DNA of 64,000 bases from the NCBI GenBank assembly GCA_014729915.1, contig WJJD01000058.1, forward strand, positions 18,293 through 82,292, read 5' to 3'. Below the pieces are notes generated by a model. The model was not told the DNA's origin. It did not search any database and was given only the letters and a program-made list of their open reading frames with translations. A program made the position numbers and the translations under genes. Positions 26,498 through 63,944 of the stretch are shown here, piece after piece; the first letter of the stretch is position 1; each line of letters begins with the position of its first letter. Origin of the DNA: Candidatus Woesearchaeota archaeon (GTDB taxonomy: Archaea > Nanobdellota > Nanobdellia > Woesearchaeales > GW2011-AR15).

Positions 26498-29400
26498 ATG
26501 GATATGAAAATATTAAAAAACATAGTTTGTGTCATTCTTATTATTTTATCAGCCGGCACTGTAATTTCTCAGATATCTTCGGATAGTGATATTATACAGC
26601 TGGAAAAACAAAAATTCAACCGTTTAGAAAAAATACAGATTACCGTAAAAAACCATTCAGAAAAAAGATTAGTGATTTTATCAGAAAACAATTTTTATTC
26701 AATAACAGATCTTAAAAAAACAAATACTTTTCTTCCAACAAACCCAGGAGATTATCAGATAAGGCTCCTGGATAAAAATCAGGAAATACTCTTTCAGAAA
26801 AAGTTTCAGGTATCAGGCAGAAAATCCGCTCATGAATCTTTCGGAACAATAAAAATCATAAATAAGGATAACAAAGAGATATTTTCTGACTATAGGTTTA
26901 TATCAAAAAACAAAATAATTTCCGAAAATGAATTAATTTCTCCCGGGAATTATGATATTGAGATAGAACCTGAGAATATTGATATTAAAAAAATTAAATT
27001 TAATAAATTTAATTTTACAGGCCGGTTTTATATAAAGCTTGACAAAATCAACATTAAAAAGATCAGCAATAAAAAAATTGTTAAAGCATTTGCGATTGAT
27101 TCAAACAACCTGAAATTTGAAGAAACAGAGATTACTGCACAAGCAAAGGGAACAGAACTCTGGAAATGCAGTGATTTTGATTTTTCAGGAGAGCTATGCA
27201 GCAGCAAATGGAAGAAAATAAAAAATATAATTCCGGGAAATGAATATTTTATAACTGTATATGACAAAACAGCAGGATTTGCTGAAACAGGTGTTGCAAC
27301 AGTTAACACTGAAAAACCAATTTATCATCCTGATGAGATTGTTAACATATATATGGTTGTACTTGATAATTCTGGATTCCTGGTGACAAATGCTCATTTG
27401 AATCTTGAGATTACCTCTCCAAAAAATCAAAAGTATAATCTGAAAACACCCGGGGATATTAAAGAGATTAAAAAAGGAATATATCGGGCTGAATTTTCTC
27501 AAATTTCTGTTCCGGGAAATTATATAATGAAAGTTATTGCAAAAGCAGAAAATACTGACAGCGATCTTATAAGTTATTTTACTGTAAGGGATTCTTATGA
27601 GTTTGATATCCTGAGAAATAATCCTTTGACAATTGATCCCTGGAAAGGTCCCTTTTTTTCATCAATTAGCATAAGAACATATGTTGATGCATCTTATTTT
27701 TCTTTCACAGAAATACTGCCCTCATCATTTACAATACATGATTCCGGAACCGGACTTGTCACAAATCATCCAGACCATAAAGAAATCACATGGACTGGCC
27801 TTGAAAATGATTCAGAAGTCTATTATACTGCAAATTCTCCTCTTAAGACACCTGAACTCTATGAGATAGGGCCTTCAAGAATCAATTACGATGATAAGAT
27901 ATTTACTGAAGCAAGACCATGGTATCTTGCTGTTGATCCTGTATTAAATATCAATGCATCCGGCTGCAGTAAACATTCAAATGCAAGCTCTTCAAATACA
28001 TTTGATGATGCCTGTTCTGATCCATATAATCTGAGCCTTGAAGATGGGAATTACCAGATTGCGGATGCACAGCAGGATGATTACTGCGGTATTGAGGCAG
28101 TCTATAATCAGGATCTTGAGGATTGTGCAAAAATCAACAGGGTCGATGTCTGCATAGACTGGTGGTTTACAGGGACAGTCCTGGAATGCCTTGGAGTGAA
28201 TTTTACAGGAACCGGGACATCAGGAACATGGTATACAAGCCAGCTGAGCAGCTGTCCTGAAGCTAACGGGGATATGATATGCTCTGATGAGACATCTTAT
28301 TTTGACTGGAACTGCAATTCATTTACAGGTGATAATGCAGCAATAAGAGCCCAGTTGAGAAGCCAGACAGACTCTTCCCACTGCATCTATGATGCAGTTT
28401 ATTTTAATATCAATTATTCTGCATATCCGAATATAACCGGCAATATAACAAACAACGGGCCTGTAATACAAAGACACAATATCACTTTTACCGGAAATTG
28501 CACTGATCTTGATCCCGGTGATAATTTCCGGCTCATCGTATGCAACTCTTCAACTTCTGAATGCAATGCAACAACAGCAGGAAATGATCTTATATGTAAA
28601 GGAGAATTTACAGATTCAAATTCCCCCAATTGCACGTACACTGCAGGATATGATGATATTGGTTTACATACAGGCGATATAGGTACCTGCTGTGATGCTG
28701 AGGGAAACTGCAATCCTGTTCTTCATGATGTTGAGGACTGGCAAATCTTATCAGGAACCCCGGATCTTACAACAGAAACACAATTTATTCATTTTTCAGA
28801 TGAATCTCCGTCTGAATCAGAAAACATAACAATAAATTCAACAATAAAAAATATCGGAAACGGGACAGTCTATAACATAACAATACAATTCTGGGATGAG
28901 CATCCTGACAGCAACGGGCTAAAAATTAACGGAAACAGGACAATAGATAAGATAATGGATAAAAAAAATAAGACAATAAATATAACATATAAATTCACAA
29001 GCCCGGGCCCTCATGAAATCTATGTATTAATTGATCCTGGAGAAGATATACATGAATCAAACGAAACAAATAATGAGATATATAAAGTTATCAATGTACC
29101 TTCCTGGCATATTTATTTTGGAAATTTATCCTCGCTGATTGTGCTCGGAGATGCAGAAAATAAGACAAAGATAACCTGGAATTCTGAAAATCCTTCGATA
29201 ATCTATATTGTTGAATCCGGAACTGATATAAACTGGGATAACCTGCAGGCACTTACAAGAAACACAACTGATGAATATGAGTTCAATGATTTTGAAGAAT
29301 TTGATGATATGCTAAACATGACATATTTTTCAGATTCTGTAAATAATACATTTACAATAAATTTCCAGCCCAAAAAAACAGTTTCTTTTGAAATTTATGA

Positions 29401-29650
29401 CAGGACAATAAATAATGTACCGATAATCAATTCAACAAATTCGTCAACCTTTGTTACAGGAGTTTTGTGGGATACAAATGACGGAAACACCCATTACAAC
29501 GGGACACAGGACATTGTATTTTTCACAAATTCAACAGAAAAAAAACAGGGAAAATACGGGACATATGATTATGAATTATCTGTACCCGCTCTTCTCAGAG
29601 AATACAAGCTAGGTTCTGATAAATTGACAATGTATGTTGAAATAAAGTAA
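26498..29650 (+). CDS. Secreted 1,050-aa surface protein with a signal peptide, a Cys-rich central region, a CARDB domain, and the same ~180-aa C-terminal tail as the giant protein
   Basis: N-terminus 'MDMKILKNIVCVILIILSAGTVISQ'. CARDB-like 'ENITINSTIKNIGNGTVYNITIQFWDEHP ... HEIYVLIDPGEDIHESNETNNE'. The tail '...VPIINSTNSSTFVTGVLWDTNDGNTHYNGTQDIVFFTN ... GTYDYELSVPALLREYKLGSDKLTMYVEIK' aligns with the giant's '...VPVINSTNNSNFMTGILWDKSDGNNEFNATQDLVFITE ... YDFEFKVPSNLKLYKQPDTTKVALYTELK'. Confidence 0.8.
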   Translation: MDMKILKNIVCVILIILSAGTVISQISSDSDIIQLEKQKFNRLEKIQITVKNHSEKRLVILSENNFYSITDLKKTNTFLPTNPGDYQIRLLDKNQEILFQKKFQVSGRKSAHESFGTIKIINKDNKEIFSDYRFISKNKIISENELISPGNYDIEIEPENIDIKKIKFNKFNFTGRFYIKLDKINIKKISNKKIVKAFAIDSNNLKFEETEITAQAKGTELWKCSDFDFSGELCSSKWKKIKNIIPGNEYFITVYDKTAGFAETGVATVNTEKPIYHPDEIVNIYMVVLDNSGFLVTNAHLNLEITSPKNQKYNLKTPGDIKEIKKGIYRAEFSQISVPGNYIMKVIAKAENTDSDLISYFTVRDSYEFDILRNNPLTIDPWKGPFFSSISIRTYVDASYFSFTEILPSSFTIHDSGTGLVTNHPDHKEITWTGLENDSEVYYTANSPLKTPELYEIGPSRINYDDKIFTEARPWYLAVDPVLNINASGCSKHSNASSSNTFDDACSDPYNLSLEDGNYQIADAQQDDYCGIEAVYNQDLEDCAKINRVDVCIDWWFTGTVLECLGVNFTGTGTSGTWYTSQLSSCPEANGDMICSDETSYFDWNCNSFTGDNAAIRAQLRSQTDSSHCIYDAVYFNINYSAYPNITGNITNNGPVIQRHNITFTGNCTDLDPGDNFRLIVCNSSTSECNATTAGNDLICKGEFTDSNSPNCTYTAGYDDIGLHTGDIGTCCDAEGNCNPVLHDVEDWQILSGTPDLTTETQFIHFSDESPSESENITINSTIKNIGNGTVYNITIQFWDEHPDSNGLKINGNRTIDKIMDKKNKTINITYKFTSPGPHEIYVLIDPGEDIHESNETNNEIYKVINVPSWHIYFGNLSSLIVLGDAENKTKITWNSENPSIIYIVESGTDINWDNLQALTRNTTDEYEFNDFEEFDDMLNMTYFSDSVNNTFTINFQPKKTVSFEIYDRTINNVPIINSTNSSTFVTGVLWDTNDGNTHYNGTQDIVFFTNSTEKKQGKYGTYDYELSVPALLREYKLGSDKLTMYVEIK

Positions 29651-30491: not shown

Positions 30492-31433
30492 GTGAAAATG
30501 GGATTTTTAAAAAATATCTGTCTGGACTTGAGTTTCCTTGATATCAGAAGACTCTTGAAAAAAAATAAAGAGTCTGAGGAAAAAACTGAAAATCAACAAA
30601 TAAAAGAACAGGTTTCTCAATCTGATGAACCAAGACAGCCTCCCCGACTACCAAGATCTCTATTTGACAGAAAATCAAATCAGGTTGCACCTCCTGAGAA
30701 AGCACCCTCTACTCTTCCCGAGATATCTTATGATTTTTTCAAGAAACAAGGAAAAAAGAAAAACAAACAATCTCTTAAATCAAAACCAATCCAAAAACAA
30801 ATAACAGAGGAAAAACCATTTGAAAAAATCCCTGTATCAGAGAATACATTTTTCAATAATCTTGTTTCAGATCTTAAAAAAGATTCTCTGGAATACAGGG
30901 ATACAAAAAATGTTATTGTTGATGATCTGTTTTCTTCAATGAAGGAATTTTGGCAAAACAAAAAATATGATAGAGGCAATAAACAAAAATTAAATTTTAT
31001 CAAAAAAGAAGTAGTTGACAGGATGCAGGAGCTTCATGAGCTTGAGGTCGAGTGGCAGAAATCCAAGATCACTCATGAAACTCTGGGAGATAACCTACAT
31101 AAAAAAGAATTGGAAATTGAATCAAAAATAAGAGAACTTAAAAAGATCTTTCAAAAACACCATGCTCATATGGAGGTTAAACAGGAACTTTTTTTTAATG
31201 TAAAAAACGGCATGACAATAAAATCACTTTCAGAACTTAACGACAAGCTCCCTGAAATACCTGATGAAGTATTTTTTTTTCATGTTAATGAAAACAAAAA
31301 TGATTTCTCTACATGGATAAATGATGTTTTTGGTCTCAAAAACCTGGCAAAAGACCTTTCTGGAGCAAAATCAAGAAATGAATTTTCAGAAATTCTTGAA
31401 AAACATGTTTCAGATGAGGATTTTTCCATTTAA
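30492..31433 (+). CDS. Soluble, charged coiled-coil protein ending in the conserved ~70-aa 'HVNE-KNDFS-W' C-terminal domain
   Basis: The C-terminus 'FFNVKNGMTIKSLSELNDKLPEIPDEVFFFHVNENKNDFSTWINDVFGLKNLAKDL' aligns with the C-termini of the products of 45052..47544 and 51965..54850. No TM helix is present. A TATA-like 'ctataaaaaaatatatatac' lies at about 30445-30464. Confidence 0.7.
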   Translation: MKMGFLKNICLDLSFLDIRRLLKKNKESEEKTENQQIKEQVSQSDEPRQPPRLPRSLFDRKSNQVAPPEKAPSTLPEISYDFFKKQGKKKNKQSLKSKPIQKQITEEKPFEKIPVSENTFFNNLVSDLKKDSLEYRDTKNVIVDDLFSSMKEFWQNKKYDRGNKQKLNFIKKEVVDRMQELHELEVEWQKSKITHETLGDNLHKKELEIESKIRELKKIFQKHHAHMEVKQELFFNVKNGMTIKSLSELNDKLPEIPDEVFFFHVNENKNDFSTWINDVFGLKNLAKDLSGAKSRNEFSEILEKHVSDEDFSI

Positions 31434-45051: not shown

Positions 45052-47544
45052 ATGAAAAAATACATCTTAATATTAATTGCAATCATATTTTTGCAGATGA
45101 ATGTTTCAGCACAAATTCCGGCATACAGGGACCTTCCATTTCTTTCAACAGAATTTTACGGTACTGCAACAGTTTATGATCTTAACAGTACAGCCTTTGA
45201 AGCCGGCACAAGAATAGATGCCTATGCATATGAAACATTATGCGGTACATTTTATATAGAAAATGAAGGCTATTACGGATCATTGACCTGCAGAGCAGAC
45301 GATAATAACACTAATGAGACAGAGGGTGCACTACAGGGCCAGAATATAATATTCAGGATAGATAATCAGACAACTCTTAGCTCAGGAGATACAGTCTGGT
45401 ACCAGGGGGAATTCCAGAGGGTTGATCTTGCATTGGCTCCCGGTTGCCCGAACGGGTGGTGTGAAATAGGAGAGAGCTGCGTTAATTGTCCGGAGGACTG
45501 CGGGGTATGCCCCCCTCCGGGAGCAGGCCAAGGAGGAGAAGGAGGAGACGGGGAAGGAGGTGATTCAGGAGATTCAGATAACAGTGATGAAGAGGATGGA
45601 GGTGCCGGCGAGGATGAAGGAGATTCTGCAGCAGGTGCCGGTTCAGGTGATATCAGTTTCAGAGAAGGAAGAGATACAATGCAGAATCTTTCCATGGAAT
45701 TATGCAAAGAAGACTGGTTCTGCACTGCCTGGATTCCTGACCCCTGCCCTATTTCAGGAGAGCAGACAAGAAACTGCACAGATATCAACAATTGCAATAC
45801 AACTTTTACAAAACCAGAAGAAAAACAGAACTGCACATATGAAGGGACATGTTTTGATTATATATTAAACCAGGATGAGACAGATATTGACTGCGGGGGA
45901 AAAATTTGTGAGGGATGTGAGAATGATAAAAGATGCAAAAAAGACAGAGACTGCGTTTCGGGATTCTGCAATCCTTTTGAAGAGGTCTGCAGAACCCCTG
46001 TCTGTGATGACGGTATAAAAAACCAGGGGGAGCAGGAAATTGACTGCGGGGGTCCCTGTCCACCATGTCATCCTGAAGAGATGCCGATTCTTGAACAACC
46101 CGGAAGAATCATCCGATTTGTCGTGGCAGGATGCGGACCGTTCCCCTGGGGCATATTGATGATATCTTCAGTTGGCATATTATTATGTTATGTTCTTGGT
46201 AAAGTCTATATAAAAAGATATCAAAATAAAAGGAAATTTACCAGGCTGGATAGACTTGATAAGCTGAATAAAAAATACAGGATGGAGCGTTATCTAAACT
46301 TGTTTATTATAAATGGGATACTTGTTATGTTGTCTATTTGTTTATACTTATATTATTTCTGCGAGATCGTGGTATGGATATTTATCATGGTGATGCTTAT
46401 AATTCCTTTAATTACAGGCTTTACAATAAAGCTGCTTGTCTATGATGAAAAACGAAAACAGGAAAGATTCAGGAGACTGATAATATCGCATGAAGAAGAG
46501 TTAAGTAAAATTATCAGGTTAAAGAATACCCAGATAAATGAAATTGAAAAAGATATAATAAACAGATTAGAAAAAATAATTTTTTCAGGTTCGTTAAAAC
46601 CTGCGATGAGAGATCATCTGTCAAGGCTCCTCAAACTTATCAAAACCCACAATAAGATGGATATTTCAGATCCTGATCTTGAAAAAAATATGATAGACAA
46701 AATTGATGAGATAAAAGACAAAAATAACTCCAAAAACAAAATACTCTCACAGGCAATGGATTCTCTTAATCTGTTGAAAAAAATTTTTAATGATAAGGCC
46801 GGTCAGGAAAAGGAATTGGGAAAAGACGAGAAAATTGAAAAAAACATTGAAGAGGGAAGCCAAAATAAAGAAAATAAAGAAATGGATAATCTAAAAAAAA
46901 ACAAAACACATAATTCGGACTATTTTGATGATATTGACGAAAAAGCAGATAAACAGATACTAAAACTCGAAAAAAAACAGATGGAAAAGCAGCTAGAGCG
47001 GGAAGTGGAAAAAAGGCATACAAAAGAACTTCAAACAAAGAAAAAATATGATTATTCAAAAAAAGCAGAAAATCCATTTAAGATAATAAACACACGAATA
47101 GCAAATACAATAAATGAGCTGATAACAGACATAAAAAACATGAACGAATCAGATTATTATTTTCACAATAATGAGCTCAGGAATGACTTTTCAGAATGGA
47201 TAAGCGGAGAATTCGGGTATGGTGCACTGGCTGAAAAAATTAATCATATCAAGGCAAGACAGGATCTTCTTAAAATTCTGGAATCTTCTGGAAAGTATGT
47301 AAAAGACAAAAAAACTGGCAAAAAACTATTCAGGCTCAATAGCGGTAAAACAATAGAGACTATAGATGAATTAAAAAATGAGTTAGGGAAAATGGATGAT
47401 CAGGAATTTTATTTGTATGTGAATGAATTAAGAAATGAATTTTATTATTGGATTAAAAATAAATTGGAAAAAGATAAACTTGCTGAAAAACTAAGATATG
47501 TGAAAACAAAGAAGGAAATGATTGAAATCTTAAAAACATACTAA
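45052..47544 (+). CDS. Membrane protein with a signal peptide, a Gly/Asp/Glu-rich acidic low-complexity region, Cys-rich 'IDCGGPC' repeats, TM helices, and a Lys/Glu coiled-coil cytoplasmic tail carrying two copies of the 'HVNE-KNDFS-W'-type domain
   Basis: Signal peptide 'MKKYILILIAIIFLQMNVSA'. Acidic region 'PPPGAGQGGEGGDGEGGDSGDSDNSDEEDGGAGEDEGDSAAGAGSGD'. Cys-rich 'CFDYILNQDETDIDCGGKICEGC ... CDDGIKNQGEQEIDCGGPCPPC' and 'C.DW.C ... NNC' resembling the 24349 protein. TM segments at 'GILMISSVGILLCYVLG' and 'GILVMLSICLYLYYFCEIVVWIFIMVMLIIPLITGF'. Tail copies 'YYFHNNELRNDFSEWISGEFGYGALAEKINHIKARQDLLKIL' and 'FYLYVNELRNEFYYWIKNKLEKDKLAEKLRYVKTKKEMIEIL'. Confidence 0.75.
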   Translation: MKKYILILIAIIFLQMNVSAQIPAYRDLPFLSTEFYGTATVYDLNSTAFEAGTRIDAYAYETLCGTFYIENEGYYGSLTCRADDNNTNETEGALQGQNIIFRIDNQTTLSSGDTVWYQGEFQRVDLALAPGCPNGWCEIGESCVNCPEDCGVCPPPGAGQGGEGGDGEGGDSGDSDNSDEEDGGAGEDEGDSAAGAGSGDISFREGRDTMQNLSMELCKEDWFCTAWIPDPCPISGEQTRNCTDINNCNTTFTKPEEKQNCTYEGTCFDYILNQDETDIDCGGKICEGCENDKRCKKDRDCVSGFCNPFEEVCRTPVCDDGIKNQGEQEIDCGGPCPPCHPEEMPILEQPGRIIRFVVAGCGPFPWGILMISSVGILLCYVLGKVYIKRYQNKRKFTRLDRLDKLNKKYRMERYLNLFIINGILVMLSICLYLYYFCEIVVWIFIMVMLIIPLITGFTIKLLVYDEKRKQERFRRLIISHEEELSKIIRLKNTQINEIEKDIINRLEKIIFSGSLKPAMRDHLSRLLKLIKTHNKMDISDPDLEKNMIDKIDEIKDKNNSKNKILSQAMDSLNLLKKIFNDKAGQEKELGKDEKIEKNIEEGSQNKENKEMDNLKKNKTHNSDYFDDIDEKADKQILKLEKKQMEKQLEREVEKRHTKELQTKKKYDYSKKAENPFKIINTRIANTINELITDIKNMNESDYYFHNNELRNDFSEWISGEFGYGALAEKINHIKARQDLLKILESSGKYVKDKKTGKKLFRLNSGKTIETIDELKNELGKMDDQEFYLYVNELRNEFYYWIKNKLEKDKLAEKLRYVKTKKEMIEILKTY

Positions 47545-48234: not shown

Positions 48235-48250
48235 ATATAAATATATATAT
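48235..48250 (+). promoter_or_regulatory. TATA-box-like element about 20-35 nt upstream of the 48270 start codon
   Basis: 'ATATAAATATATATAT' at 48235..48250. Confidence 0.3.
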
Positions 48251-48269: not shown

Positions 48270-49253
48270 ATGAAACTCGCATTTGCGACCGGTCCTTATG
48301 CCCAGTCAGAGGATTCTTTATACATCTTTCTAAAAGAAGCTTTAAGCCGAAACCACAAGGTTTATCTCTTTATTTTGGATGATATTTATACAAAAGACAA
48401 TCATATTTTTGCTGACCTGATGCTGCTTTCGAAAAAAAGATTCGGCATAGACAATAATCAAAGATATAAATTTGATAAAAAAGTTCCCATGCAGCTGGGG
48501 TCAATGAACGCAGTTTTTTTAAAAAGAGATCCGCCTGTTCCTGCAGATAAACTTGAAATGATAAAAGATCTCGGCAAAAAAGTTTTTGTTGTAAATGATC
48601 CCGCAGGCATAATAAAATATAAAAGCAAGTCTTCTCTTGAAAGATTTTCAGAATTCATGCCTGAGACCTTCTTTTCAAAAGATGTCTCATTTCTTAAACA
48701 AAAAATCAATGAATTAAAAGATTGTGTACTAAAACAGGACTTCAGCTATGGTGGTCTTGGTATCCATCGTATATATGAGAAGAACAATCAATATTTTCAT
48801 AATCATCTGAAGATAAAAAATCAAAAAATACAGCTGACTCCTTTTCTTAAAAAACTGACATTAGACGGGACAAAAAAATTGACACTTGTCCGTTTCCTCA
48901 AAAATATAGACCAGGGAGATAAACGGATAATAATTCTTGACGGAAAAATTCTTGGTGCTATACTAAGAAAACCCTCAAAGGACTCATGGATATGTAATAT
49001 CACTTCAGGAGGGGTTGCGGGAAAAACAACAATTACAGAGGATGAACAAGAAATGATTAAAAAAATATCTCCTGTCCTTACGCAGGACGGAATACATATT
49101 GCAGGATTTGACACTCTGGTGGATGACAGCGGTAAAAGAGTATTATCAGAAATAAACACAACCAATGTTGGAGCGTTTCATATCCTGAACAAAACTTATA
49201 ATTTAAAACTAGAAAAGAAAATTATTGATTGGTTAGAACACGAATCTTTTTAA
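48270..49253 (+). CDS. Glutathione synthetase-like ATP-grasp ligase (GshB/RimK family)
   Basis: Alignable to E. coli GshB: 'FLKRDPPVPADKLEMIKDL' versus 'LMRKDPPFDTEF'. 'DGDKRIIILDGKILGAILRKPSKDSWICNITSGGVAGKTTITEDEQEMIKKISPVLTQDGIHIAGFDTLVDDSGKRVLSEINTTNVGAF' versus '[82 protein letters not shown]'. Confidence 0.7.
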   Translation: MKLAFATGPYAQSEDSLYIFLKEALSRNHKVYLFILDDIYTKDNHIFADLMLLSKKRFGIDNNQRYKFDKKVPMQLGSMNAVFLKRDPPVPADKLEMIKDLGKKVFVVNDPAGIIKYKSKSSLERFSEFMPETFFSKDVSFLKQKINELKDCVLKQDFSYGGLGIHRIYEKNNQYFHNHLKIKNQKIQLTPFLKKLTLDGTKKLTLVRFLKNIDQGDKRIIILDGKILGAILRKPSKDSWICNITSGGVAGKTTITEDEQEMIKKISPVLTQDGIHIAGFDTLVDDSGKRVLSEINTTNVGAFHILNKTYNLKLEKKIIDWLEHESF

Positions 49254-49461
49254 ATCTTATATTTTTCATTCTTTAACCCTCATTAAATAGAATACATTAA
49301 AATGAAGAGAAAAAAGAATGAAAAGTCAGTTCTGCTGCCTCGGATGGATTGTCTAAAAAATAATAATGAGAATATTATATATTCCTCCATAGATATATTT
49401 ATATATCAGTATAGTTTTTTATATACTAATATAAAGTAATGTAAATCAAAAGGTAAAGAAA

Positions 49462-50211
49462 ATGTGCAGAATGGTTATCGGGATCGGAAATATAGACACA
49501 AAAAAATTAATTGATGATTTCAGGTATATTGCTCAGGGAAAAAATGAGCTGCATGAAAAAAATCCATATTACGGAAAACTAATGCATGATCATGGCTGGG
49601 GTCTTGCCTACCTGAACAAAAAAAATAAATGGGTCATATATAAGTCAGTCAACCCGATATATGAGGATAAAAACCTAAAGGAATTTACAGATATCGACAC
49701 ACAGGCCTTGATAATACATGCAAGAAAAGCGACTGCGGGAAACAAGACTATACCTAATACTCAGCCTCTGTTTTTCAAAAATCAGGATCAGGAATTTTTA
49801 TTCGCCCATAACGGAACAATCAACGATCAGTTTGATATTAAAACTAAATATCTTGAATATGGAGATTCAGACACAGTAATGTGGTTCAATAAGATTCTTC
49901 TGGATGTCAACAAGGAAAATGAAGTCAGGATTGAAAAACATTTGTATTCATTAAAAAACTTCACTTCAGCAAATTTCTTTTTTGTAACTCCTGAAAAAAT
50001 CTTTGTAGGGCAGTATTACAGAAAGGATCCAAAATATCATACAATGAAATTATTTAAGGAAAATTACGGATTAATAATATCTTCAGAAATACTTCCACAT
50101 CTTAAAAGTAAAAACTGGAGTGAGATTCCCAACAGGAGCATTTTTGAGATTGATTATAAAAAAAAAAGGGCAATGGTTAAAAAACGGATTTCTCAGACAT
50201 CTTCCGTGTGA
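49462..50211 (+). CDS. Class II (Ntn-type) glutamine amidotransferase-like protein, YafJ/EgtC-like
   Basis: It starts 'MCR...', with Cys2 as the Ntn nucleophile as in YafJ/EgtC. 'HDHGWGLAY' matches the 'DGWGIA' core. The length of about 250 aa is typical. Confidence 0.6.
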   Translation: MCRMVIGIGNIDTKKLIDDFRYIAQGKNELHEKNPYYGKLMHDHGWGLAYLNKKNKWVIYKSVNPIYEDKNLKEFTDIDTQALIIHARKATAGNKTIPNTQPLFFKNQDQEFLFAHNGTINDQFDIKTKYLEYGDSDTVMWFNKILLDVNKENEVRIEKHLYSLKNFTSANFFFVTPEKIFVGQYYRKDPKYHTMKLFKENYGLIISSEILPHLKSKNWSEIPNRSIFEIDYKKKRAMVKKRISQTSSV

Positions 50212-51520
50212 TCAAGAGATTCTTGAATAGTTTATCAGAAAGTTTTATAGATAATTCCTCAGCTGTTTCCTGTGTAATTCTTTTATAATTAGTATATCCC
50301 TGTTTTTTCTTGACATAATCAAGAATCTCATCAGAGGTTGTTTTTCTTTTTTCAAGTATCTCCTTAAATTCCTGTAAAATTAATTTGTTATTATCAATTA
50401 CGTTCTTATCAAGAAAATCAACAAGGGATCCGCAATACTCTCTTATCTTCATGCTGTCAAGACCTTTAACTGCGGATTTTTTCTGGAGAACATTCCTGAG
50501 ATAATCTGCCTGGGGAACATAGAGCTTATCTGATTCTAATTTGAATGGATTTTTATTCCCGATTTTATCAGGAATTATCTTTATTTTGTTTTTATTAATA
50601 TATCTTATGAAATTTTTCAATATCCCGCACAACCCTGCAACCTTTTTAACGGAATTCATATCACATCCCCTGCTTTCGATTGTGCCGTGAGCAGTAACTT
50701 TTACAGGTTTCCATGAAGAATCAAGGATTGAAGTTCCGTATTTTGTGAATTTATTAAAAGAAACATCATGCTCATTTAACAATTTTTTCCATTCCGTACT
50801 TCTTTTCCGGATAGAATTTTTAAGTTCATTAAATTCCAGAGAATACTTATTTAATGTCCCGAAATCAGGTTGCCTTGCATAAAGCGAGTTCTCATATTCG
50901 AAAAACTCCTCTCCCCTGTATGCAATTATCCTGGAATCCTTGCCGAGATAGTTCCCCTGATAATACGGGGATGACTGCATAAAAGTTGTTATTGCTGGAT
51001 CAAGTGCAATAAAAAGATTATTTACATTAAGGACTTTATGCTTATCCCTCTCTTTTATATCAGGGTAGAAGAATTTTATATTCCTGTTAAATGTTCTTCT
51101 TGGAAGCGAATAATGATAGTGAAAACCGATGCATCTTCCGGCTGTCTTCCAGTTCTCTTTTCCAAGAATTTTTTCTTTTGCATAGTACCTGGGTTCTTCC
51201 CTCATTTCAGGGGAATTTTTTCCGGGATATGAGCCGTAGTAAAACAGGCTTAAGTCCTGTTTATCAATATCATATATCAGATTTTCAAAATCATCAAAAA
51301 AATTGCTGAATACGTGTCTTGAGGAAAGATGCGGGAATGTTGCAATCTCTAACATATTTTTTCCGCATTCTTTCTTTAATTCAGTGTTTGTCAGATTTTT
51401 TTTAAATTCTTCAAGAACTGAATCTGCTTTATTAACAATCCTGCCTTCATTATCAATAAGAAAGAATTCAAGTTCGATCCCGAATGTCCTATGGCTCGGT
51501 GGATAACTGATAGGAGTCAT
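50177..51520 (-). CDS. GCS2/YbdK-family carboxylate-amine ligase (glutamate-cysteine ligase-like amidoligase)
   Basis: N-terminal 'RTFGIELEFFLIDNEGRIV' matches YbdK/GCS2 'FTLGIEEELQLVD'. 447 aa. Convergent with, and overlapping, the 3' end of the amidotransferase gene. Confidence 0.65.
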   Translation of the reverse strand: MTPISYPPSHRTFGIELEFFLIDNEGRIVNKADSVLEEFKKNLTNTELKKECGKNMLEIATFPHLSSRHVFSNFFDDFENLIYDIDKQDLSLFYYGSYPGKNSPEMREEPRYYAKEKILGKENWKTAGRCIGFHYHYSLPRRTFNRNIKFFYPDIKERDKHKVLNVNNLFIALDPAITTFMQSSPYYQGNYLGKDSRIIAYRGEEFFEYENSLYARQPDFGTLNKYSLEFNELKNSIRKRSTEWKKLLNEHDVSFNKFTKYGTSILDSSWKPVKVTAHGTIESRGCDMNSVKKVAGLCGILKNFIRYINKNKIKIIPDKIGNKNPFKLESDKLYVPQADYLRNVLQKKSAVKGLDSMKIREYCGSLVDFLDKNVIDNNKLILQEFKEILEKRKTTSDEILDYVKKKQGYTNYKRITQETAEELSIKLSDKLFKNLLITRKMSEKSVF

Positions 51521-51803
51521 GTATCTCTGAAACTTCAGGATTGTTATAAATGTTTGCTCATATTGTGCAAACCCGGTGAATCTCTGATTCTAACGTGTCT
51601 TTGACCATTCACATACTCACCTCTTTCCCTTTTTTATTAAATTATTAAAATATCTTCCCGACAAATATCATAAAAATAATAAATATAAATTTATTTATAA
51701 AATATTAAAAATATAGTAAAGTATAAATATAAGATATATTATAAATATAACATAGTAGCCATTTTTGTATATTATTTATAATTTTTGATTAACGGAAAAA
51801 TAA

Positions 51804-51968
51804 ATGAGCAAGGTAAAACGGGTAAACATCGAGTTAAAAGAAGACACCCATATGAAGGCAAAGGTAATTGCTGTTCTAAAGGATATAACCCTCAATGAAT
51901 TTTTTGAATCAGCTATTGAGAAATATATAGATGAAAACAAGGGTGTCTTAGAAAAGATAAAAGAATGA
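51804..51968 (+). CDS. Small (54 aa) ribbon-helix-helix/CopG-like protein, translationally coupled (ATGA) to the downstream surface protein gene. It is not in the ORF track because it is under 60 aa.
   Basis: 'MSKVKRVNIELKEDTHMKAKVIAVLKDITLNEFFESAIEKYIDENKGVLEKIKE' has a strand-helix-helix pattern. Its stop at 51966-51968 overlaps the ATG at 51965. Confidence 0.4.
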   Translation: MSKVKRVNIELKEDTHMKAKVIAVLKDITLNEFFESAIEKYIDENKGVLEKIKE

Positions 51969-54850
51969 GGAAAAATTTTTTTTTAACCGGAATTGTAATG
52001 TTTTTTCTTATTCCTGTTGCTCACTCTCTCGGATCAATTTCAACCTCAGACCTGACTCCTCGAAATGTTGATCTATGCGGAGAAAATTCCCAATATGTGA
52101 CAATCTCAGCACAGGAAATCTTAAACCTAGAAAATGAGACATTGACATCAGTAAAAGCATCTCTTTACCTGAATGAAGATGCAGGATTGAGTTATGTAAC
52201 TCCGCAGACAGTTGAACTCGGAGATATTTATGCAGACAATTACAGTTCAGTTTCTCCTTCATGGGTTTTGCAGTGTCTCTCACCAAACCAGGGAATATAC
52301 ACTGCATTCATCAACTATACATCAGCAAACAGCTATTTTGCAAGCTCAATTGATCAGGCAAACACAGTGATAACAGTATACGCACAGGATGATATAAACG
52401 GAAACATAACAATAATAGAAAAAGACTCTGAACCTAAACAACCAAGCACGGATATAATCTCAGATAATACACCAACGGTTGTTGCCAGTACAGACAGGGA
52501 TTCAATATGCAGGGGAGCAGTTGATGCTGATAAATCATATGATATCATGGATTTTGTTTTCTATGGTACAGAAAGAGATCATAATTACACTTTTACAAAT
52601 ATTATCTCAGAAGGAAAACATACAATCTATGTAAAATGCAAAGATCTTTTTGGAAAAGTGATGGAAAATTCCATGGAAATATCCTTCCAAGTTGATTCGT
52701 CAGATCCTGAAATTATTATTGAGAGCCCGTTGACAATCTCAAAAGATTATATTAATTTTCATATAACAGTAAGTGAAGAATCAGAATGCAGGTATTCCTT
52801 TTCAGAAGAATCATTTAATAGTAAGATAGGGTTTGATAACCGGGAAAAAATCTCATTTTCAAGTTTGTTAGAGGATCTTAAAAAAGGGGAAAACCCTATC
52901 TATGTTGAGTGCAGGGACATTGTCGGAAATACTGGTAAAAAAAATATAATTGTCTCGGTAGAAAGACCTCCTAGCTGTGAAATAATATTAAGTGATGAAT
53001 CTCCTGTAAAACAGGGAATATTGGAAGTAAAGCTGATTCCCTCAAAAAAATTAAGAGAAATACCTGACTTAAGCTATAGTTATACAGACACTGAAAAATT
53101 CACAAGAGAAATCTCTCTGACAGAGCACTCAGGATATTATAAGGGATTTTTGATAATAGACAACTACGAGACACCGAAAATCGGGGTTTTTGAGTTTTCA
53201 GGATATGATCTCTCGGGAAATAAAGGAACAGAAATAACAAACGGAGCAGATTTTATTGTTGACACTATAAAACCCGGAGGGATTGAAAGCATAAATTCAG
53301 GTACAGATCCTGAAAATAATATTGTATTGAAATGGTTTTATGAAGGAGAAGGAACCCAGAATTTCAATATTTACAGGTCAACAACTCCCGGAGTTACTTA
53401 TATTGATTATTATGATAAGGCAAATATCCAGGAATATACTGATGAGAATCTTAAGTCAGGCACAGAATATTATTACAGGGTTTGTGCAGTTGACAAAGCA
53501 GGAAACATAGGAGAATTATCCAAAGAAGTTTCAGCAGTAGCCCAAACAGGTTTGTCAGATGAAAAAATTCATCAGGAAGATCCGCCAAGACTATCTACAT
53601 TACAGGAATTTAATAAAACACTTAGAGAAATAGAAAGCCTGAAGATAGATATTGACTGGGCAGAGGCAAATCTTGCAGAACAAAAATCACAGGAACCTGC
53701 AGTAACAGATCTTGGCTTATATAAGAATGTAATGGGTTCACAGGAAAAAATAAAACAACTGAAAAATAAATTTGAAAAAACAAATCCATTATCAAATTCA
53801 GATCAAGAACTAAAAGAACTGATTGCAAATACAGAAAAACAGCTTGAAAACCTAAGAAAACAGACACCAGCAAAACTTGAGATAATTAAAAAAACAGAAT
53901 ATATGCAGCCTGTAGCAAAATCAGATATTGATCAGGCAGTAAGGGAAGTTACAAAGGGTCTTAATTTTACAGAAAAACAACTCAAAGAGTATAGAGAAAA
54001 AAATTATGATATACGGGAGAAGATCAGGATCTCTTCACTTGTAAAGACATTATCCATAGAATATCTTGATGAATCCGGGGATTACAGAGTATGGGTTAAT
54101 AAAAATGTCCATTATGAAGATCCTGAACCAGTTTCGGACATAAAACTAGTTGAGATAATTCCAAAGACACTCGCAGGAAACCTCGGTACAGTAAATGTCA
54201 GGACAGCTGATCATGTAATAATAAATGAGGATCCGGTCATTGCCTGGAATATTGATGAGCTGAGCTATGAGAAATTCAATATAAAATATATTGTAATAAC
54301 TCAGGACACATCTGAATCAGCAAAAAACACAAAGACAATCGGCCTATTAAAATTTGATGACATGTTAATGCAATCACCCAGTTTAATCACAGGTTTTTCA
54401 ACTACACTCACAAGGATATCACCATTCAACATCATCCAGACAATAGGAGTCTTTATAGGAATAATGCTTGTAATCAGCCTGTTTATGTATTATCTTGCAG
54501 CAATCAAAGAGATAGATATAGGAGGCAGATACCTGGACAGGATAAAAAATTTCAGAAAAGAACAAAGACAGCAAATAAAACCTGTCTCAATGAGAAATTA
54601 TTCTTTATTGACATCACCTGAACAATATTTCTATCTTGCAAACGGAGATGTCATAAGAAGCTTAGGAGAGTTTTTTAATATGCTTGAAGAGATGGGTGAT
54701 TCAATATTTTATACTCATGTAAATGAACACAAAAATGATTTTTCAAATTGGCTAAGATCAGTATTTAGATTAGATGATGTAGCAGAAAAGATTCAATACA
54801 GCAAATCAAAAAAAGAGATGATAAAGATCTTAGAACAGTACAAAAGATAA
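51965..54850 (+). CDS. Type I membrane surface protein of 961 aa: a signal peptide, Ig-like domains and a fibronectin type III domain, an extracellular coiled-coil, one TM helix, and the cytoplasmic 'HVNE-KNDFS-W' C-terminal domain
   Basis: Signal peptide 'MRKNFFLTGIVMFFLIPVAHS'. FN3 'NIVLKWFYEGEGTQNFNIYRSTTPGVTYIDYYD ... SGTEYYYRVCAVDKAGNIGELS'. TM 'IIQTIGVFIGIMLVISLFMYYLAAI'. C-terminus 'YFYLANGDVIRSLGEFFNMLEEMGDSIFYTHVNEHKNDFSNWLRSVFRLDDVAEKIQYSKSKKEMIKILEQYKR'. Confidence 0.8.
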   Translation: MRKNFFLTGIVMFFLIPVAHSLGSISTSDLTPRNVDLCGENSQYVTISAQEILNLENETLTSVKASLYLNEDAGLSYVTPQTVELGDIYADNYSSVSPSWVLQCLSPNQGIYTAFINYTSANSYFASSIDQANTVITVYAQDDINGNITIIEKDSEPKQPSTDIISDNTPTVVASTDRDSICRGAVDADKSYDIMDFVFYGTERDHNYTFTNIISEGKHTIYVKCKDLFGKVMENSMEISFQVDSSDPEIIIESPLTISKDYINFHITVSEESECRYSFSEESFNSKIGFDNREKISFSSLLEDLKKGENPIYVECRDIVGNTGKKNIIVSVERPPSCEIILSDESPVKQGILEVKLIPSKKLREIPDLSYSYTDTEKFTREISLTEHSGYYKGFLIIDNYETPKIGVFEFSGYDLSGNKGTEITNGADFIVDTIKPGGIESINSGTDPENNIVLKWFYEGEGTQNFNIYRSTTPGVTYIDYYDKANIQEYTDENLKSGTEYYYRVCAVDKAGNIGELSKEVSAVAQTGLSDEKIHQEDPPRLSTLQEFNKTLREIESLKIDIDWAEANLAEQKSQEPAVTDLGLYKNVMGSQEKIKQLKNKFEKTNPLSNSDQELKELIANTEKQLENLRKQTPAKLEIIKKTEYMQPVAKSDIDQAVREVTKGLNFTEKQLKEYREKNYDIREKIRISSLVKTLSIEYLDESGDYRVWVNKNVHYEDPEPVSDIKLVEIIPKTLAGNLGTVNVRTADHVIINEDPVIAWNIDELSYEKFNIKYIVITQDTSESAKNTKTIGLLKFDDMLMQSPSLITGFSTTLTRISPFNIIQTIGVFIGIMLVISLFMYYLAAIKEIDIGGRYLDRIKNFRKEQRQQIKPVSMRNYSLLTSPEQYFYLANGDVIRSLGEFFNMLEEMGDSIFYTHVNEHKNDFSNWLRSVFRLDDVAEKIQYSKSKKEMIKILEQYKR

Positions 54851-60201: not shown

Positions 60202-60747
60202 ATGGCAAACACATATACTGATGAAGTAATAGGGCTGTTTGAGGACCCGGACAATGCAGAAGATGCTATAAATGAGCTTCGGGACAGGGGATATGCTCCT
60301 GAAGAGATCTCTGTTGTGGGTACAGAGACTGAGCTTGAGGAATATACAAAAGAAGGCTCTGGAGTAAGCGTATCAGAAGGCACAGGAATGGGTGCTGCTT
60401 CAGGAGCAGTGCTTGGCGGTATCGCGGGTCTTCTTGCAGGAGTAGGGGCTATAGCAGTTCCGCCGGCAGGGGCATTACTATTTGCAGGACCCCTGGCAGT
60501 GGCGCTCGGCCTTACAGGAGCAGCAGCAACAACAACATCCGGAGCAGCTTCAGGAGCGCTTGCAGGAGGAATTGTAGGAGGTCTTGTAAGTCTTGGATTT
60601 CCTGAAGAAAAAGCAAAATTTTATGAAGAGAAGATTGGAGAAGGCTCTGTCATGGTCTCTGTTCCGATATATCTGGAAGAAGAGCAGGTAGCAAGAGAAA
60701 TCCTTGAGGACAACGGAGCAGATGATGTATGGGAGTATACAGAATAA
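60202..60747 (+). CDS. General stress protein 17M (YflT)-like protein with a central Gly/Ala-rich membrane-associated segment
   Basis: N-terminal 'VIGLFEDPDNAEDAINELRDRGYAPEEISVVG' matches the GSP17M/YflT N-domain pattern. It is followed by 'GMGAASGAVLGGIAGLLAGVGAIAVPPAGALLFAGPLAVALGLTGAAA' (glycine-zipper-like). This gene is GC-richer than the surface-protein genes. Confidence 0.55.
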   Translation: MANTYTDEVIGLFEDPDNAEDAINELRDRGYAPEEISVVGTETELEEYTKEGSGVSVSEGTGMGAASGAVLGGIAGLLAGVGAIAVPPAGALLFAGPLAVALGLTGAAATTTSGAASGALAGGIVGGLVSLGFPEEKAKFYEEKIGEGSVMVSVPIYLEEEQVAREILEDNGADDVWEYTE

Positions 60748-61472: not shown

Positions 61473-63944
61473 ATGAAAAAACTTAAGCAAATTAATAAAA
61501 AATCACAATCAAGAGAAGATCATTTAAAAGAACTAAAAAGATCAAAGCCTTTCATTTTGTGGTTTGACCAGCTGGGAATTGAAGATGTTCCTGCTGTCGG
61601 CGGAAAAAACGCATCACTTGGAGAGATGTACAGAAATTTAACACCAAGAGGTGTCAGGATACCAAACGGTTTTGCAGTAACAGCATATGCTTATTTTTAC
61701 CTTATTGAAAAAGCAGGAATTAAGGAACAGATAAAGCAGATCCTTCATGATCTTGACACGGGCAATATGAAAAATCTTTCTGAAAGGGGTCATAAAGTTA
61801 GAAAATTAATAAGGGAGACACAGATCCCTCCTGAATTAAGAAATCAGATTATAACACAATACAATAATCTATGCAATGCTTACAATGCAGAGAATGTTGA
61901 TGTTGCTGTTCGAAGTTCAGCCACAGCTGAAGATCTTCCTGATGCAAGCTTTGCAGGCCAGCAGGAGACCTATCTTAATATAAGAGGCCATGAACAGCTT
62001 ATTGATGCCTGCAAAAAATGTTTTGCTTCCTTATTTACTAACCGTGCAATATCATACAGGGAAGACAAAGGATTTGACCATTTTTCAATCGGGCTGAGCA
62101 TCGGAGTCCAGAAGATGGTGAGAAGCGACAAGGGAAGCTCCGGGGTAATGTTTTCTATTGATACGGAATCAGGTTTCAGGAATGCCGCATTTATTACAGC
62201 AGCATACGGCCTTGGAGAAAATGTAGTCCAGGGAGCAGTCAACCCTGATGAATATTATGTTTTTAAGCCAACCTTAAAACAGGGATACAGCCCGATTCTA
62301 AGCAAAAAACTCGGAAGCAAAGAAAAAAAGATGATCTATTGCAGTGAAGGAAACAAAGTTACAAAAAATGTGCCTGTTGAAATAACACACAGGAAACAGT
62401 TTGCATTAAATGATGATGAGATACTGGAACTGGCAAGCTGGGCATCAATTATTGAGGATCATTACAGTTCAAAAGCAGGGCATTATAAGCCAATGGACAT
62501 GGAATGGGCAAAAGACGGTATAACAGGAGATCTTTTTATTGTCCAGGCAAGGCCTGAAACAGTACACTCACAGGATGATAAGACAGTGCTTAAGAAATAC
62601 CATATGAAAGAAAAGGGCGAAGTTCTTATTTCCGGAAATTCAGTGGGTGAAAAAATCGGCCAGGGAAAAGCCCATATAATAAAAGATGTTCATCAGATTG
62701 ATCAGTTCAAGAAAGGAGAAGTCCTGATTACAGAGATGACTGATCCTGACTGGGAGCCTATCATGAAGATAGCCTCAGCTATTGTTACAAACAGGGGAGG
62801 AAGGACATGCCATGCTGCAATCATCTCAAGGGAATTAGGGATACCCTGCATTGTCGGCACAATCAAAGGAACAGAAGAGATCCCAAATAAAGAAGATATA
62901 ACAGTTGACTGCTCTCAGGGAAGCAAAGGATATATCTACAATGGAAAGCTTGATTATGAAGTTGAAAAGCATGATTTAAAGAACCTTAAAAAGCCAAAGA
63001 CAAAAATCATGATGAACCTTGGAAATCCTGACCAGGCATTTGAGCTCAGCTTTTTGCCTGTTGAGGGAGTTGGTCTTGCAAGAGAAGAATTCATAATTAA
63101 TTCTTATATTAAGATTCATCCCCTGGCTTTATTGAAGTTTGACAATGTAAAGGATAAGAAAGCAAGGAAAAAAATAAATGAGCTCACCTATGCATACGAT
63201 AATAAGGCGGATTATTACATAGACAAGCTAGCACAGGGAGTTGCGACAATTGCAGCAGCATTTTATCCTAAAGATGTGATTGTAAGGCTTAGTGATTTTA
63301 AGAGCAATGAGTATGCAAACCTTATCGGAGGAAAAAGCTTTGAGCCGGATGAAGACAATCCCATGATAGGATGGAGAGGAGCATCAAGATATTATTCAGA
63401 AAAATACAGGGAAGCCTTTTCTTTGGAATGCAGAGCGTTGAAAAAAGTAAGGGATGAGATGGGGCTTACCAATGTGATCCTGATGGTTCCGTTCTGCAGG
63501 ACAATAAAAGAGGGGGAGAATGTATTGAGGATTATGGGAGAGAACGGACTAAAGAGAGGAGTAAACGGCCTTAAGGTATATGCGATGTGCGAGATCCCGT
63601 CTAATGTTATTCTTGCAGAAGAGTTCCTGGATATCTTTGACGGCTTTTCCATTGGGACAAATGACCTTACCCAGCTCACACTCGGTCTGGACAGGGATTC
63701 AGAGCTTGTCGCAAGTGTCTATGATGAAAGAAACGATGCGGTAAAGAATCTGGTCAAAAAAGTTATTGATGTCGCAAACAGCAAAGGCAAGTATATAGGA
63801 ATCTGCGGACAGGCACCTTCTGATTATCCGGAATTTGCCACATTTTTGGTTGAGTGCGGAATACATTCCATGTCATTGAATCCGGATACAGTGATTAAGA
63901 CCATAGTTCTTGTGAATGAAAAGGAAAAAGAAATAGGAAAGTAA
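61473..63944 (+). CDS. ppsA: Phosphoenolpyruvate synthase (pyruvate, water dikinase)
   Basis: 823 aa. N-terminal ATP-grasp region 'FILWFDQLGIEDVPAVGGKNASLGEMY'. Phosphohistidine domain 'TNRGGRTCHAAIISRELGIPCIVGT'. C-terminal PEP-utilizer domain 'GFSIGTNDLTQLTLGLDRDS'. The RBS GAGGTG is upstream. Confidence 0.92.
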   Translation: MKKLKQINKKSQSREDHLKELKRSKPFILWFDQLGIEDVPAVGGKNASLGEMYRNLTPRGVRIPNGFAVTAYAYFYLIEKAGIKEQIKQILHDLDTGNMKNLSERGHKVRKLIRETQIPPELRNQIITQYNNLCNAYNAENVDVAVRSSATAEDLPDASFAGQQETYLNIRGHEQLIDACKKCFASLFTNRAISYREDKGFDHFSIGLSIGVQKMVRSDKGSSGVMFSIDTESGFRNAAFITAAYGLGENVVQGAVNPDEYYVFKPTLKQGYSPILSKKLGSKEKKMIYCSEGNKVTKNVPVEITHRKQFALNDDEILELASWASIIEDHYSSKAGHYKPMDMEWAKDGITGDLFIVQARPETVHSQDDKTVLKKYHMKEKGEVLISGNSVGEKIGQGKAHIIKDVHQIDQFKKGEVLITEMTDPDWEPIMKIASAIVTNRGGRTCHAAIISRELGIPCIVGTIKGTEEIPNKEDITVDCSQGSKGYIYNGKLDYEVEKHDLKNLKKPKTKIMMNLGNPDQAFELSFLPVEGVGLAREEFIINSYIKIHPLALLKFDNVKDKKARKKINELTYAYDNKADYYIDKLAQGVATIAAAFYPKDVIVRLSDFKSNEYANLIGGKSFEPDEDNPMIGWRGASRYYSEKYREAFSLECRALKKVRDEMGLTNVILMVPFCRTIKEGENVLRIMGENGLKRGVNGLKVYAMCEIPSNVILAEEFLDIFDGFSIGTNDLTQLTLGLDRDSELVASVYDERNDAVKNLVKKVIDVANSKGKYIGICGQAPSDYPEFATFLVECGIHSMSLNPDTVIKTIVLVNEKEKEIGK

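Follow-up and report, generated by a model that had tools for sequence, protein, structure and literature searches.

A GCS2-fold ligase family of DPANN archaea and CPR bacteria with paired amidohydrolases and osmotic-stress neighbors, viewed from a three-gene locus of a Woesearchaeota genome

In ligases of the glutamine synthetase/glutamate-cysteine ligase (GS/GCS) fold, a carboxylate is turned into an acyl phosphate before it is joined to an amine; in enzymes with the fold of the glutathione synthetase GshB, the activated group is the alpha-carboxylate at the C terminus of a small peptide. Stand-alone class II N-terminal nucleophile (Ntn) enzymes with the active site found here hydrolyze gamma-glutamyl amides, and FGase-type enzymes hydrolyze N-acyl-glutamate. 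In ergothioneine synthesis (EgtA/EgtC) and in polyamine catabolism (PuuA/PuuD), a gamma-glutamyl group is added and later removed, and gamma-glutamyl peptides reportedly have a part in the osmoadaptation of Escherichia coli (McLaggan et al. 1990, cited in PMC3462692). The stress operon msc-gt-tpsp of Thermoproteus tenax has been interpreted by its authors in terms of a solute that is made under stress and let out on downshock (PMC3634074). Here we describe three adjacent genes from a 64,000-nucleotide stretch of a Candidatus Woesearchaeota metagenome-assembled genome (the window), which encode an ATP-grasp ligase, an amidohydrolase and a carboxylate-amine ligase, and we compare them with these systems. 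They are arranged as follows.

48270-49253 (+): GshB-fold ATP-grasp ligase, 327 amino acids, of a non-GshB "S-W-[IL]-C-N loop" subfamily (open reading frame, Pfam, AlphaFold2/Foldseek)
49462-50211 (+): stand-alone class II (Ntn) amidohydrolase, GATase_4, 249 amino acids, with Cys2 as the nucleophile (open reading frame, Pfam)
50177-51520 (-): GCS2/YbdK-fold carboxylate-amine ligase, 447 amino acids, of a distinct DPANN/CPR family (open reading frame, Pfam, profile, AlphaFold2/Foldseek)
50177-50211 (no strand): 35 bp in which the convergent GATase_4 and GCS2-like genes overlap at their 3' ends (open reading frame coordinates)

All three products (GF327_03740, GF327_03745 and GF327_03750) are annotated as hypothetical. 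A preliminary description of this DNA had delimited the three open reading frames (ORFs), with an MCR start carrying Cys2 in the second and the string FGIELEFFLID in the third, and the ORF list agrees with it on every count (the second protein begins with MCRM). The same holds for the convergence of the third gene on the 3' end of the second, the 35-bp overlap falling in the nonconserved C-terminal tail of the GATase_4 protein. The fold and superfamily assignments also stood, since all three proteins exceeded Pfam gathering thresholds and the AlphaFold2 (AF2) models searched with Foldseek agreed for the ATP-grasp protein and the ligase, and the catalytic residues are conserved in all three. 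The three-gene observation is therefore confirmed as real and well beyond chance, with folds and catalytic residues intact. Read in terms of activity, two predicted ATP-dependent amide-bond ligases would flank one glutaminase-type amide hydrolase.

Profile and structure comparisons place the carboxylate-amine ligase in a distinct, small family of DPANN archaea and candidate phyla radiation (CPR) bacteria, sharply separated from canonical GCS2 proteins. Its match to Pfam GCS2 (PF04107) reached 26.4 bits against a threshold of 21 and covered residues 13-140 only, i.e., the N-terminal third, and the NCBIfam models stayed below cutoff (40.2 versus 176.4 bits for the YbdK family TIGR02050 and 24 to 31 versus 332 to 437 bits for models NF010039-44, with 24 to 29 bits on the GshA models). 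A profile built from 22 family sequences matched YbdK (1R8G; E value of 4.7e-11), and the AF2 model (predicted local distance difference test [pLDDT] of 93.9) retrieved YbdK (TMt of 0.77, E value of 2e-14) and plant glutamate-cysteine ligase (GCL; 2GWC, 0.64) in Foldseek, at 11 to 14% identity. The earlier reading of this protein as GCS2/YbdK-like rather than a member of an unrelated glutamine synthetase clade is thus borne out by profile and structure. E16, E18, E51, E58, H134, H136, E282, R284 and a QSSP motif are invariant in 70 sequences, and E16, E18, E51, E58, H134, E282 and R284 align with YbdK motifs. The family counts 184 representatives at an E value of ≤1e-30 and 797 at ≤1e-3 (among 1.84 billion). 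To describe its neighborhoods, we scanned one genome per GTDB species and obtained 79 distinct loci with 6-kb flanks. Their archaeal labels are Woesearchaeota, Nanoarchaeota, Aenigmatarchaeota, Iainarchaeota, Micrarchaeota, Nanohalarchaeota and Diapherotrites and their bacterial ones Magasanikbacteria, Parcubacteria/Paceibacterota and Saccharibacteria, although some of the third-party annotation (TPA) taxon labels are probably unreliable. In Nanohaloarchaeota, the family is present at L077 and L085. An exact-sequence look-up of the window ligase itself gave no match. Every source that names a family member calls it "hypothetical" or uses the generic GCS2 domain name. Among the papers searched, none links a carboxylate-amine ligase to DPANN or CPR, and a comparative paper on Woesearchaeota genomics makes no mention of glutathione or osmotic functions.

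Some relatives of the ligase are longer. In Parcubacteria/Paceibacterota (P0252; loci L056 and L060, about 5100-7344), it is fused to an N-terminal region of ~240 amino acids with two predicted transmembrane helices and a weak match to the CHASE8 periplasmic sensor (E value of 1e-3, below cutoff), which suggests a membrane-anchored, possibly signal-regulated ligase. Five others (P0312, P0317, P0320, P0321 and P0332), of 560 to 590 amino acids, have a C-terminal extension of ~170 to 190 amino acids, the end of which weakly resembles the tail of HAD-IIB (Hydrolase_3) proteins in two of the four scanned (E values of 1e-3 to 7e-3, below cutoff).

The recurring partner of this ligase is an amidohydrolase. 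After the neighbor ORFs of the 79 loci had been clustered and the clusters identified via Pfam and NCBIfam, 38 loci proved to encode one of four amidohydrolases, unrelated to each other, at no more than 6 kb from the ligase. FGase (PF05013) was present in 17 of the 79 (immediate neighbor in 14, of these co-directional in 9, with gaps of -23 to +13 bp), Amidohydro_2 in 13, GATase_4 in 4 and an M29 peptidase in 4; the small protein p137 was found in 12. The four hydrolase types never occurred in the same locus, and each was spread over several clades of the neighbor-joining (NJ) tree of the ligase, which is the pattern expected from nonorthologous replacement of a single role. The p137 proteins are helical and His-rich (e.g., ...HDPHHVHTH...), have ~130 to 137 amino acids and lack any Pfam or NCBIfam match. 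They stand beside Amidohydro_2 in 12 of the 13 ligase loci that have it (L024, L025, L028, L030, L033, L037, L038, L042, L044, L049, L063 and L064) and once beside an ATP-grasp gene (L010, 4028-4426). A GltD-like protein (glutamate synthase small-subunit type, with Fer4_20 and Pyr_redox_2) is also encoded near the ligase in five loci (L024, L044, L057, L071 and L073), in two of which its gene converges on that of the ligase with a 4-bp overlap; this recurrence may be a hint of a link to glutamate metabolism.

The trio of the window is not a conserved neighborhood, and the unit that is conserved is "ligase plus amidohydrolase." An ATP-grasp homolog was adjacent to the ligase in none of the 79 species loci and GATase_4 in four, so the proposal that the three folds together form a conserved system did not survive. 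These four loci are all among the closest relatives (45 to 55% identity), and the two genes are always convergent and overlapping. Outside them, the GATase_4/ligase pair recurs only on one metagenome contig, again from a close relative. The convergent pairs were seen in L001/L012, L013, L018 and L022 (the called genes or ORFs overlapping by 4 to 112 bp) and in L096 (4 bp). L096 holds the nearest relative of the window GATase_4 protein (60% identity), in the same pair, followed by syntenic genes for ~970 and ~291 amino acids; more distant GATase_4 relatives were found without the ligase. In two of the three close relatives of the ATP-grasp protein, the gene has an Amidohydro_2 gene nearby, either with p137 between them and both neighbors on the opposite strand (L010) or directly and co-directionally (L011). 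By BLAST, this Amidohydro_2 and p137 belong to the same families as those beside the GCS2-like ligase elsewhere, and the ATP-grasp gene takes the position held by the ligase in L024, L025, L028 and L030. A more distant ATP-grasp relative, P0103, converges on an AstE/AspA hydrolase gene. Given these Amidohydro_2, p137 and AstE/AspA neighbors, the ATP-grasp family also obeys the "ligase plus amidohydrolase" rule. Unannotated neighbors in L005, L007 and L010 were tested as hidden copies of the window proteins and are not.

The second recurring feature is the presence of osmotic-stress genes. MscS, MscS-TM (a second MscS-like membrane protein), a TreT-type trehalose synthase or an NhaP-type Na+/H+ exchanger was encoded in 27 of the 79 loci, and such genes filled 13 of 148 immediate-neighbor slots (binomial P of 1e-12 to 1e-5 for backgrounds of 0.5 to 2%). 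They made up 41 of 872 neighbor ORFs versus 1 of 498 in the control loci of ATP-grasp relatives described below (odds ratio of 24.5, P of 2e-7; the exact factor is soft because the control loci are bacterial and of other taxa). The proximity of such genes to the ligase is nonrandom. Some loci have whole blocks of such genes, as in TreT> MscS> MscS> TreT< ligase> (L029) or MscS-TM> ligase> Amidohydro_2> p137> (L024 and L028). Among the loci on long contigs, L012 is the one most closely related to the window, and its order is MscS> ligase> GATase_4<, with MscS 5 bp upstream of the ligase on the same strand. No thiol-redox family was found to recur among the neighbors of the 79 loci.

The ATP-grasp protein has both domains of GshB (GSH-S_ATP at 89 bits and GSH-S_N at 43 bits, both over the gathering threshold), but it remained below the cutoffs of the NCBIfam GshB equivalogs (164.9 versus 272 bits for TIGR01380 and 152.8 versus 299.05 bits for NF003573). 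Its AF2 model (pLDDT of 94.8) found E. coli GshB (1GSA) as its best Foldseek match, with template modeling (TM) scores of 0.85/0.89 and a root mean square deviation (RMSD) of 2.6 Å, versus TM scores of only ~0.66 to 0.69 for RimK, LysX and ArgX. Scores and structure together rule out a RimK/LysX placement, and the preliminary description was right to put the protein closer to GshB. The family-invariant residues K155, R219, R233, D281, E294 and N296 correspond to K160, R210, R225, D273, E281 and N283 of E. coli GshB, and the ATP, Mg and phosphate ligands of GshB are kept in the alignment. The loop of the window protein reads S-W-I-C-N (WICN) where E. coli GshB has E-T-R-G-N, and R233 of the E. 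coli enzyme is therefore lost; this loop arginine is reportedly important for catalysis (Tanaka et al. 1992).

Close full-length relatives of the ATP-grasp protein numbered only three among 5.8 billion protein clusters. The control came from scanning metagenomes with the alignment of the ATP-grasp family, and the 80 loci obtained fell into two bacterial groups, A and B. The gene order of group B is PrmA > RsmE > (RDD) > ATP-grasp, which equals the rsmE-gshB synteny of E. coli (order verified); these rsmE-linked proteins scored 393 to 404 bits on the GshB models and had an E-x-R-G-N loop with R233 in 29 of 29 cases. In group A, the order is 479-amino-acid protein > ATP-grasp > AstE/AspA-type deacylase, and genes for an Orn/Arg-type decarboxylase and a small acidic protein are often present as well; the ATP-grasp proteins of this group scored 128 to 143 bits on the GshB models, and all 31 that were aligned have a W-[ILV]-C-N loop. 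The three DPANN relatives of the window protein reached 137 to 164 bits, and all three have the W-[ILV]-C-N loop. By both measures, the window protein and its three relatives fall with the non-GshB group A, and we regard it as a GshB-architecture enzyme with a predicted remodeled substrate loop that fails the glutathione synthetase tests applied. The group A ATP-grasps (loci including L097-L130, some from sources labeled Saprospiraceae) are annotated as "glutathione synthase," which is probably wrong. The 479-amino-acid partner has no Pfam, NCBIfam or PDB match, the best NCBIfam match of the deacylase is DoeB, and these loci often also encode an arginine-decarboxylase-like pyridoxal phosphate (PLP) enzyme and a very acidic protein of ~117 amino acids. 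The 479-amino-acid partner (c3) was considered as a GCS2-like or ATP-grasp ligase and rejected, as it has no GCS2 similarity and only a weak nucleotide-binding-motif match (hhalign probability of 12%).

The amidohydrolase scored 54 bits against a threshold of 23 for GATase_4 (PF13230) and was also over the gathering threshold for GATase_6. Its best NCBIfam match is EgtC (TIGR03442), with 50 bits against a cutoff of 218.65, and its PDB sequence matches are 1TE5 and EgtC (4ZFJ-L), so that Pfam and NCBIfam agree with the earlier assignment to a GATase_4/EgtC-like group and not to asparagine synthase. H42, G45, G47, H86, R88, H116, N117, G118 and D137 are invariant in the family, and the N terminus is MCRM wherever called. 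No EgtB (sulfoxide synthase) or EgtD (histidine methyltransferase) domain was found in the scanned ORFs of the window, and we rejected an ergothioneine context for the window on this ground. Many GATase_4 database entries (P0213, P0216, P0220-P0226 and others) begin with MI[IV]A..., i.e., at Met4, and lack the MCR that bears the catalytic Cys, so that the nucleophile seems to be concealed by a wrongly called gene start.

The reading that we favor, with confidence somewhat short of even, is that of a make-and-break module in which a small amide or peptide derived from glutamate is built at the expense of ATP and cleaved again, in the service of osmotic homeostasis. We infer its substrates, step order and physiological role as follows. 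The carboxylate phosphorylated by the GCS2-like enzyme would probably be the gamma-carboxylate of glutamate, and its coupling to an amine would yield a small amide or dipeptide derived from glutamate. The GshB-fold ATP-grasp of this genome may then add one residue at the free alpha-carboxylate of the product, and the GATase_4 Ntn hydrolase would cleave the gamma-glutamyl amide bond again. The product could be a cytoplasmic solute or counter-ion pool, made and degraded in osmotic adaptation, rather than a canonical glutathione redox buffer; we propose a solute pool because the ligase recurs in operon-like arrangement with MscS, TreT and the Na+/H+ exchanger. An amide or dipeptide derived from glutamate would suit all the partners; as a speculation, a compound of the gamma-Glu-Glu type would count both as a gamma-glutamyl amide and as an N-acyl-glutamate. 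A more far-reaching version, which we consider doubtful, would be an osmolyte system common to DPANN and CPR, in which the GCS2-fold ligase (in some cases with a GshB-fold ATP-grasp) condenses glutamate-type solutes and interchangeable amidohydrolases split the product, encoded together with MscS, trehalose synthase and Na+/H+ exchange and with a membrane sensor-like fusion in some Paceibacteria.

Several observations weigh against this interpretation. Genes for MscS, TreT, NhaP, FGase and Amidohydro_2 are all missing from the 64-kb window, and the osmotic link is therefore borrowed from homologs in other genomes. The tie between the ATP-grasp and the ligase consists of a single adjacency here plus an indirect link via two short metagenome contigs. 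The NJ tree of the ligase has no support values, which makes the number of independent associations uncertain, and the enrichment control has the taxonomic bias given above. The partner hydrolases come from broad families, and the substrates of all three protein families are putative. The ATP-grasp protein has a GSH-S_N domain with a KRDPP motif and a structure nearest to GshB, so a glutathione-like tripeptide is a possible product. Finally, each gene of the trio has a separate AT-rich, TATA-like region upstream, as listed here.

48235-48249 (+): ATATAAATATATATA, TATA-like run 21 to 35 nt upstream of the ATG of the ATP-grasp gene (sequence reading, inference)
49254-49461 (+): AT-rich spacer of 208 bp that precedes the GATase_4 gene and contains TATA-like runs (sequence reading)
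51544-51550 (-): TTTATAA, TATA-box-like, 24 to 30 nt upstream of the ATG of the ligase gene (sequence reading)

With three such regions and the 208-bp spacer, the trio may not be cotranscribed. The spacer suggests that GATase_4 may be transcribed separately from the ATP-grasp gene, from a putative promoter, and TTTATAA is a putative archaeal promoter of the ligase gene, which would give a leaderless transcript. A sigma-70 promoter/terminator scan of the window yielded 17 sites versus 20.7 expected, with a bacterial consensus applied to an archaeal host.

Canonical thiol synthesis would take the GCS2-like enzyme as GshA, the ATP-grasp as GshB and the GATase_4 protein as a Dug3- or EgtC-like gamma-glutamyl hydrolase for turnover. 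The ligase has the GCS2 fold and is nearest to YbdK and plant GCL, both GshB domains are present in the ATP-grasp, whose nearest structure is 1GSA, and thioredoxin-fold or DsbD/AhpC genes lie near two homologous loci. GshA-family matches have also been noted in DPANN, and no archaeal GshB is known (PMC7278568). Nevertheless, the equivalog cutoffs are missed widely while true GshB controls pass, loop R233 is absent, and no thiol-redox family recurs beside the ligase in the 79 loci. There are also three close ATP-grasp relatives versus ~90 ligase matches among the matches listed (5.8 billion protein clusters), and with an ATP-grasp that rare, the ligase works without it in nearly all genomes. 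Thiol synthesis is thus an unlikely explanation, and a role in the metabolism of glutathione or gamma-glutamylcysteine, as put forward in the preliminary description, or of ergothioneine is not supported, given the missed cutoffs, the lost R233 and the absence of EgtB and EgtD from the window.

Glutamate might instead serve as a protecting or activating group that the hydrolase removes after some other step, in scavenging or biosynthesis by a reduced-genome symbiont. The pairing of ligase and hydrolase has exactly the logic of such transient gamma-glutamylation, EgtC is the best NCBIfam match of the GATase_4 protein, and the bacterial ATP-grasp operons contain an Orn/Arg-type decarboxylase, i.e., an amine producer. 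However, no oxidase, methyltransferase, EgtB or EgtD recurs beside the ligase or is found in the window, and the enrichment of MscS, TreT and NhaP is left unexplained, which makes this explanation improbable. We would give no better prospects to the view that the ATP-grasp is an unrelated neighbor, possibly acquired horizontally and working in another pathway, which would leave the GATase_4/GCS2 pair, at most, as a functional unit. It is favored by the absence of an adjacent ATP-grasp from all 79 loci, by the low number of close relatives (three), by the gene having its own upstream region and the 208-bp spacer, and by the distant GATase_4 relatives without the ligase. Yet the close relatives of the ATP-grasp are flanked by the Amidohydro_2 and p137 families of the ligase, and the nearby window genes are all surface or hypothetical ones, so that three amide-bond enzymes in a row are unlikely to be a coincidence. 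Very improbable is the tagging or trimming of proteins with peptides (RimK-, PafA/Dop- or LysW-like), in which the ligases would attach glutamate or a peptide to a carboxylate or amine group of a protein, for the hydrolase to take off again: RimK, MptN and LysX are the next-best relatives of the ATP-grasp, PafA and Dop share the GS/GCS fold (PMC2588565), and small conserved partners exist elsewhere (p137 in DPANN, the acidic ~117-amino-acid protein in bacterial operons), but there is no small carrier- or tag-like ORF beside the trio in the window, the ATP-grasp is much nearer to GshB, a small-molecule ligase, than to RimK/LysX (TM of 0.85 versus 0.66 to 0.69), and PafA and Dop are distant fold matches of the ligase (TM of 0.3 to 0.4).

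If the make-and-break osmolyte reading is true, a cycle of synthesis and splitting would quickly change the number of osmotically active particles without a change in charge, and a product that is a new compatible solute or counter-ion would explain how tiny, cell-attached organisms cope with osmotic changes and would add new enzyme chemistry to osmoadaptation. DPANN and CPR organisms have minimal metabolism and ultra-small cells, and most of their conserved family-specific proteins lack an assigned role; a paired hydrolase and osmotic-stress genes give the ligase family a genomic signature that is clear and can be tested. The fact that the ATP-grasp protein fails the GshB tests is also a warning that annotation of such genes in anaerobic archaea as glutathione synthesis is unsafe.

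Elsewhere in the window, a giant ORF at 89-24238 (+), of 8,049 amino acids with a TTG start, may run off the 5' end and has Laminin_G_3, DUF2341 and Big domains in its first 4,000 residues; with the ORFs that follow at 24235-26493 (752 amino acids) and 26498-29650 (1,050 amino acids; CARDB and MG2), it belongs to a run of very large surface proteins of the kind that is typical of DPANN. A C-terminal DUF5752 is common to three otherwise different proteins (30492-31433; 45052-47544, 830 amino acids; and 51965-54850, 961 amino acids), with a repeated ending of the type NELRNDFSEWI...KILE. Between the trio and the last of these, a 54-amino-acid ORF at 51804-51968 (+) (MSKVKRVNIELKEDTHMKAKVIAVLKDITLNEF...), ribbon-helix-helix-like in appearance, overlaps the start of the 961-amino-acid gene by 4 bp, and a 54-amino-acid gene stands at the same position in the syntenic L096. 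Downstream of the trio are a YflT (general-stress) domain protein (60202-60747) and a phosphoenolpyruvate (PEP) synthase/pyruvate phosphate dikinase (PPDK)-type enzyme (61473-63944); a PPDK-type gene is also found beside the ligase in Magasanikbacteria (L005), which may be a coincidence. tRNA and Rfam scans of the window gave no match.

Compared with GshB (1GSA; TIGR01380/PRK05246), the window ATP-grasp shares the two-domain GSH-S_N plus GSH-S_ATP layout, the best structural match and the ATP, Mg and phosphate ligands, and it differs in its low identity (22%), in R241, which is not conserved, in the missing rsmE synteny and in the loss of R233. The ligase has the same fold as the YbdK/GCS2 ligases (1R8G and 1TT4) and the plant/cyanobacterial-type GCL (2GWC), and it keeps the N-terminal E-x-E strand, the second acidic pair, H-x-H and the T-x-E-x-R-x-x-D strand of YbdK. 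Unlike YbdK, it has ~90 extra, mostly helical residues, a Pfam alignment restricted to its first ~130 residues and family invariants of its own (N168, D174-P175, QSSP at 182-185, K194, R197, R202 and W270). The GATase_4 protein resembles EgtC (4ZFJ) and YafJ-type proteins (1TE5) in the Cys nucleophile, H-x-R, the H-N-G oxyanion motif and the Asp, with no synthase domain attached, whereas it belongs to a small archaeal clade of ~30 clusters and has no EgtB, EgtD or EgtE in the window. At the level of the pair, the EgtA-EgtC and PuuA-PuuD systems likewise join a GS/GCS-fold ligase to a glutaminase-type hydrolase; here, however, no intervening enzymes are linked, and the hydrolase is replaceable by FGase, Amidohydro_2 and M29 types. 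The msc-gt-tpsp operon also co-locates solute synthesis and mechanosensitive-channel genes in an archaeon, as MscS and TreT recur in the ligase loci, although its solute is trehalose, made by another enzyme, the ligase chemistry is amide-bond formation, and MscS and TreT are absent from the window. Measured against all these systems, the folds and their chemistry are already known and the trio itself is idiosyncratic, and what is new is an unassigned family with a distinctive context.

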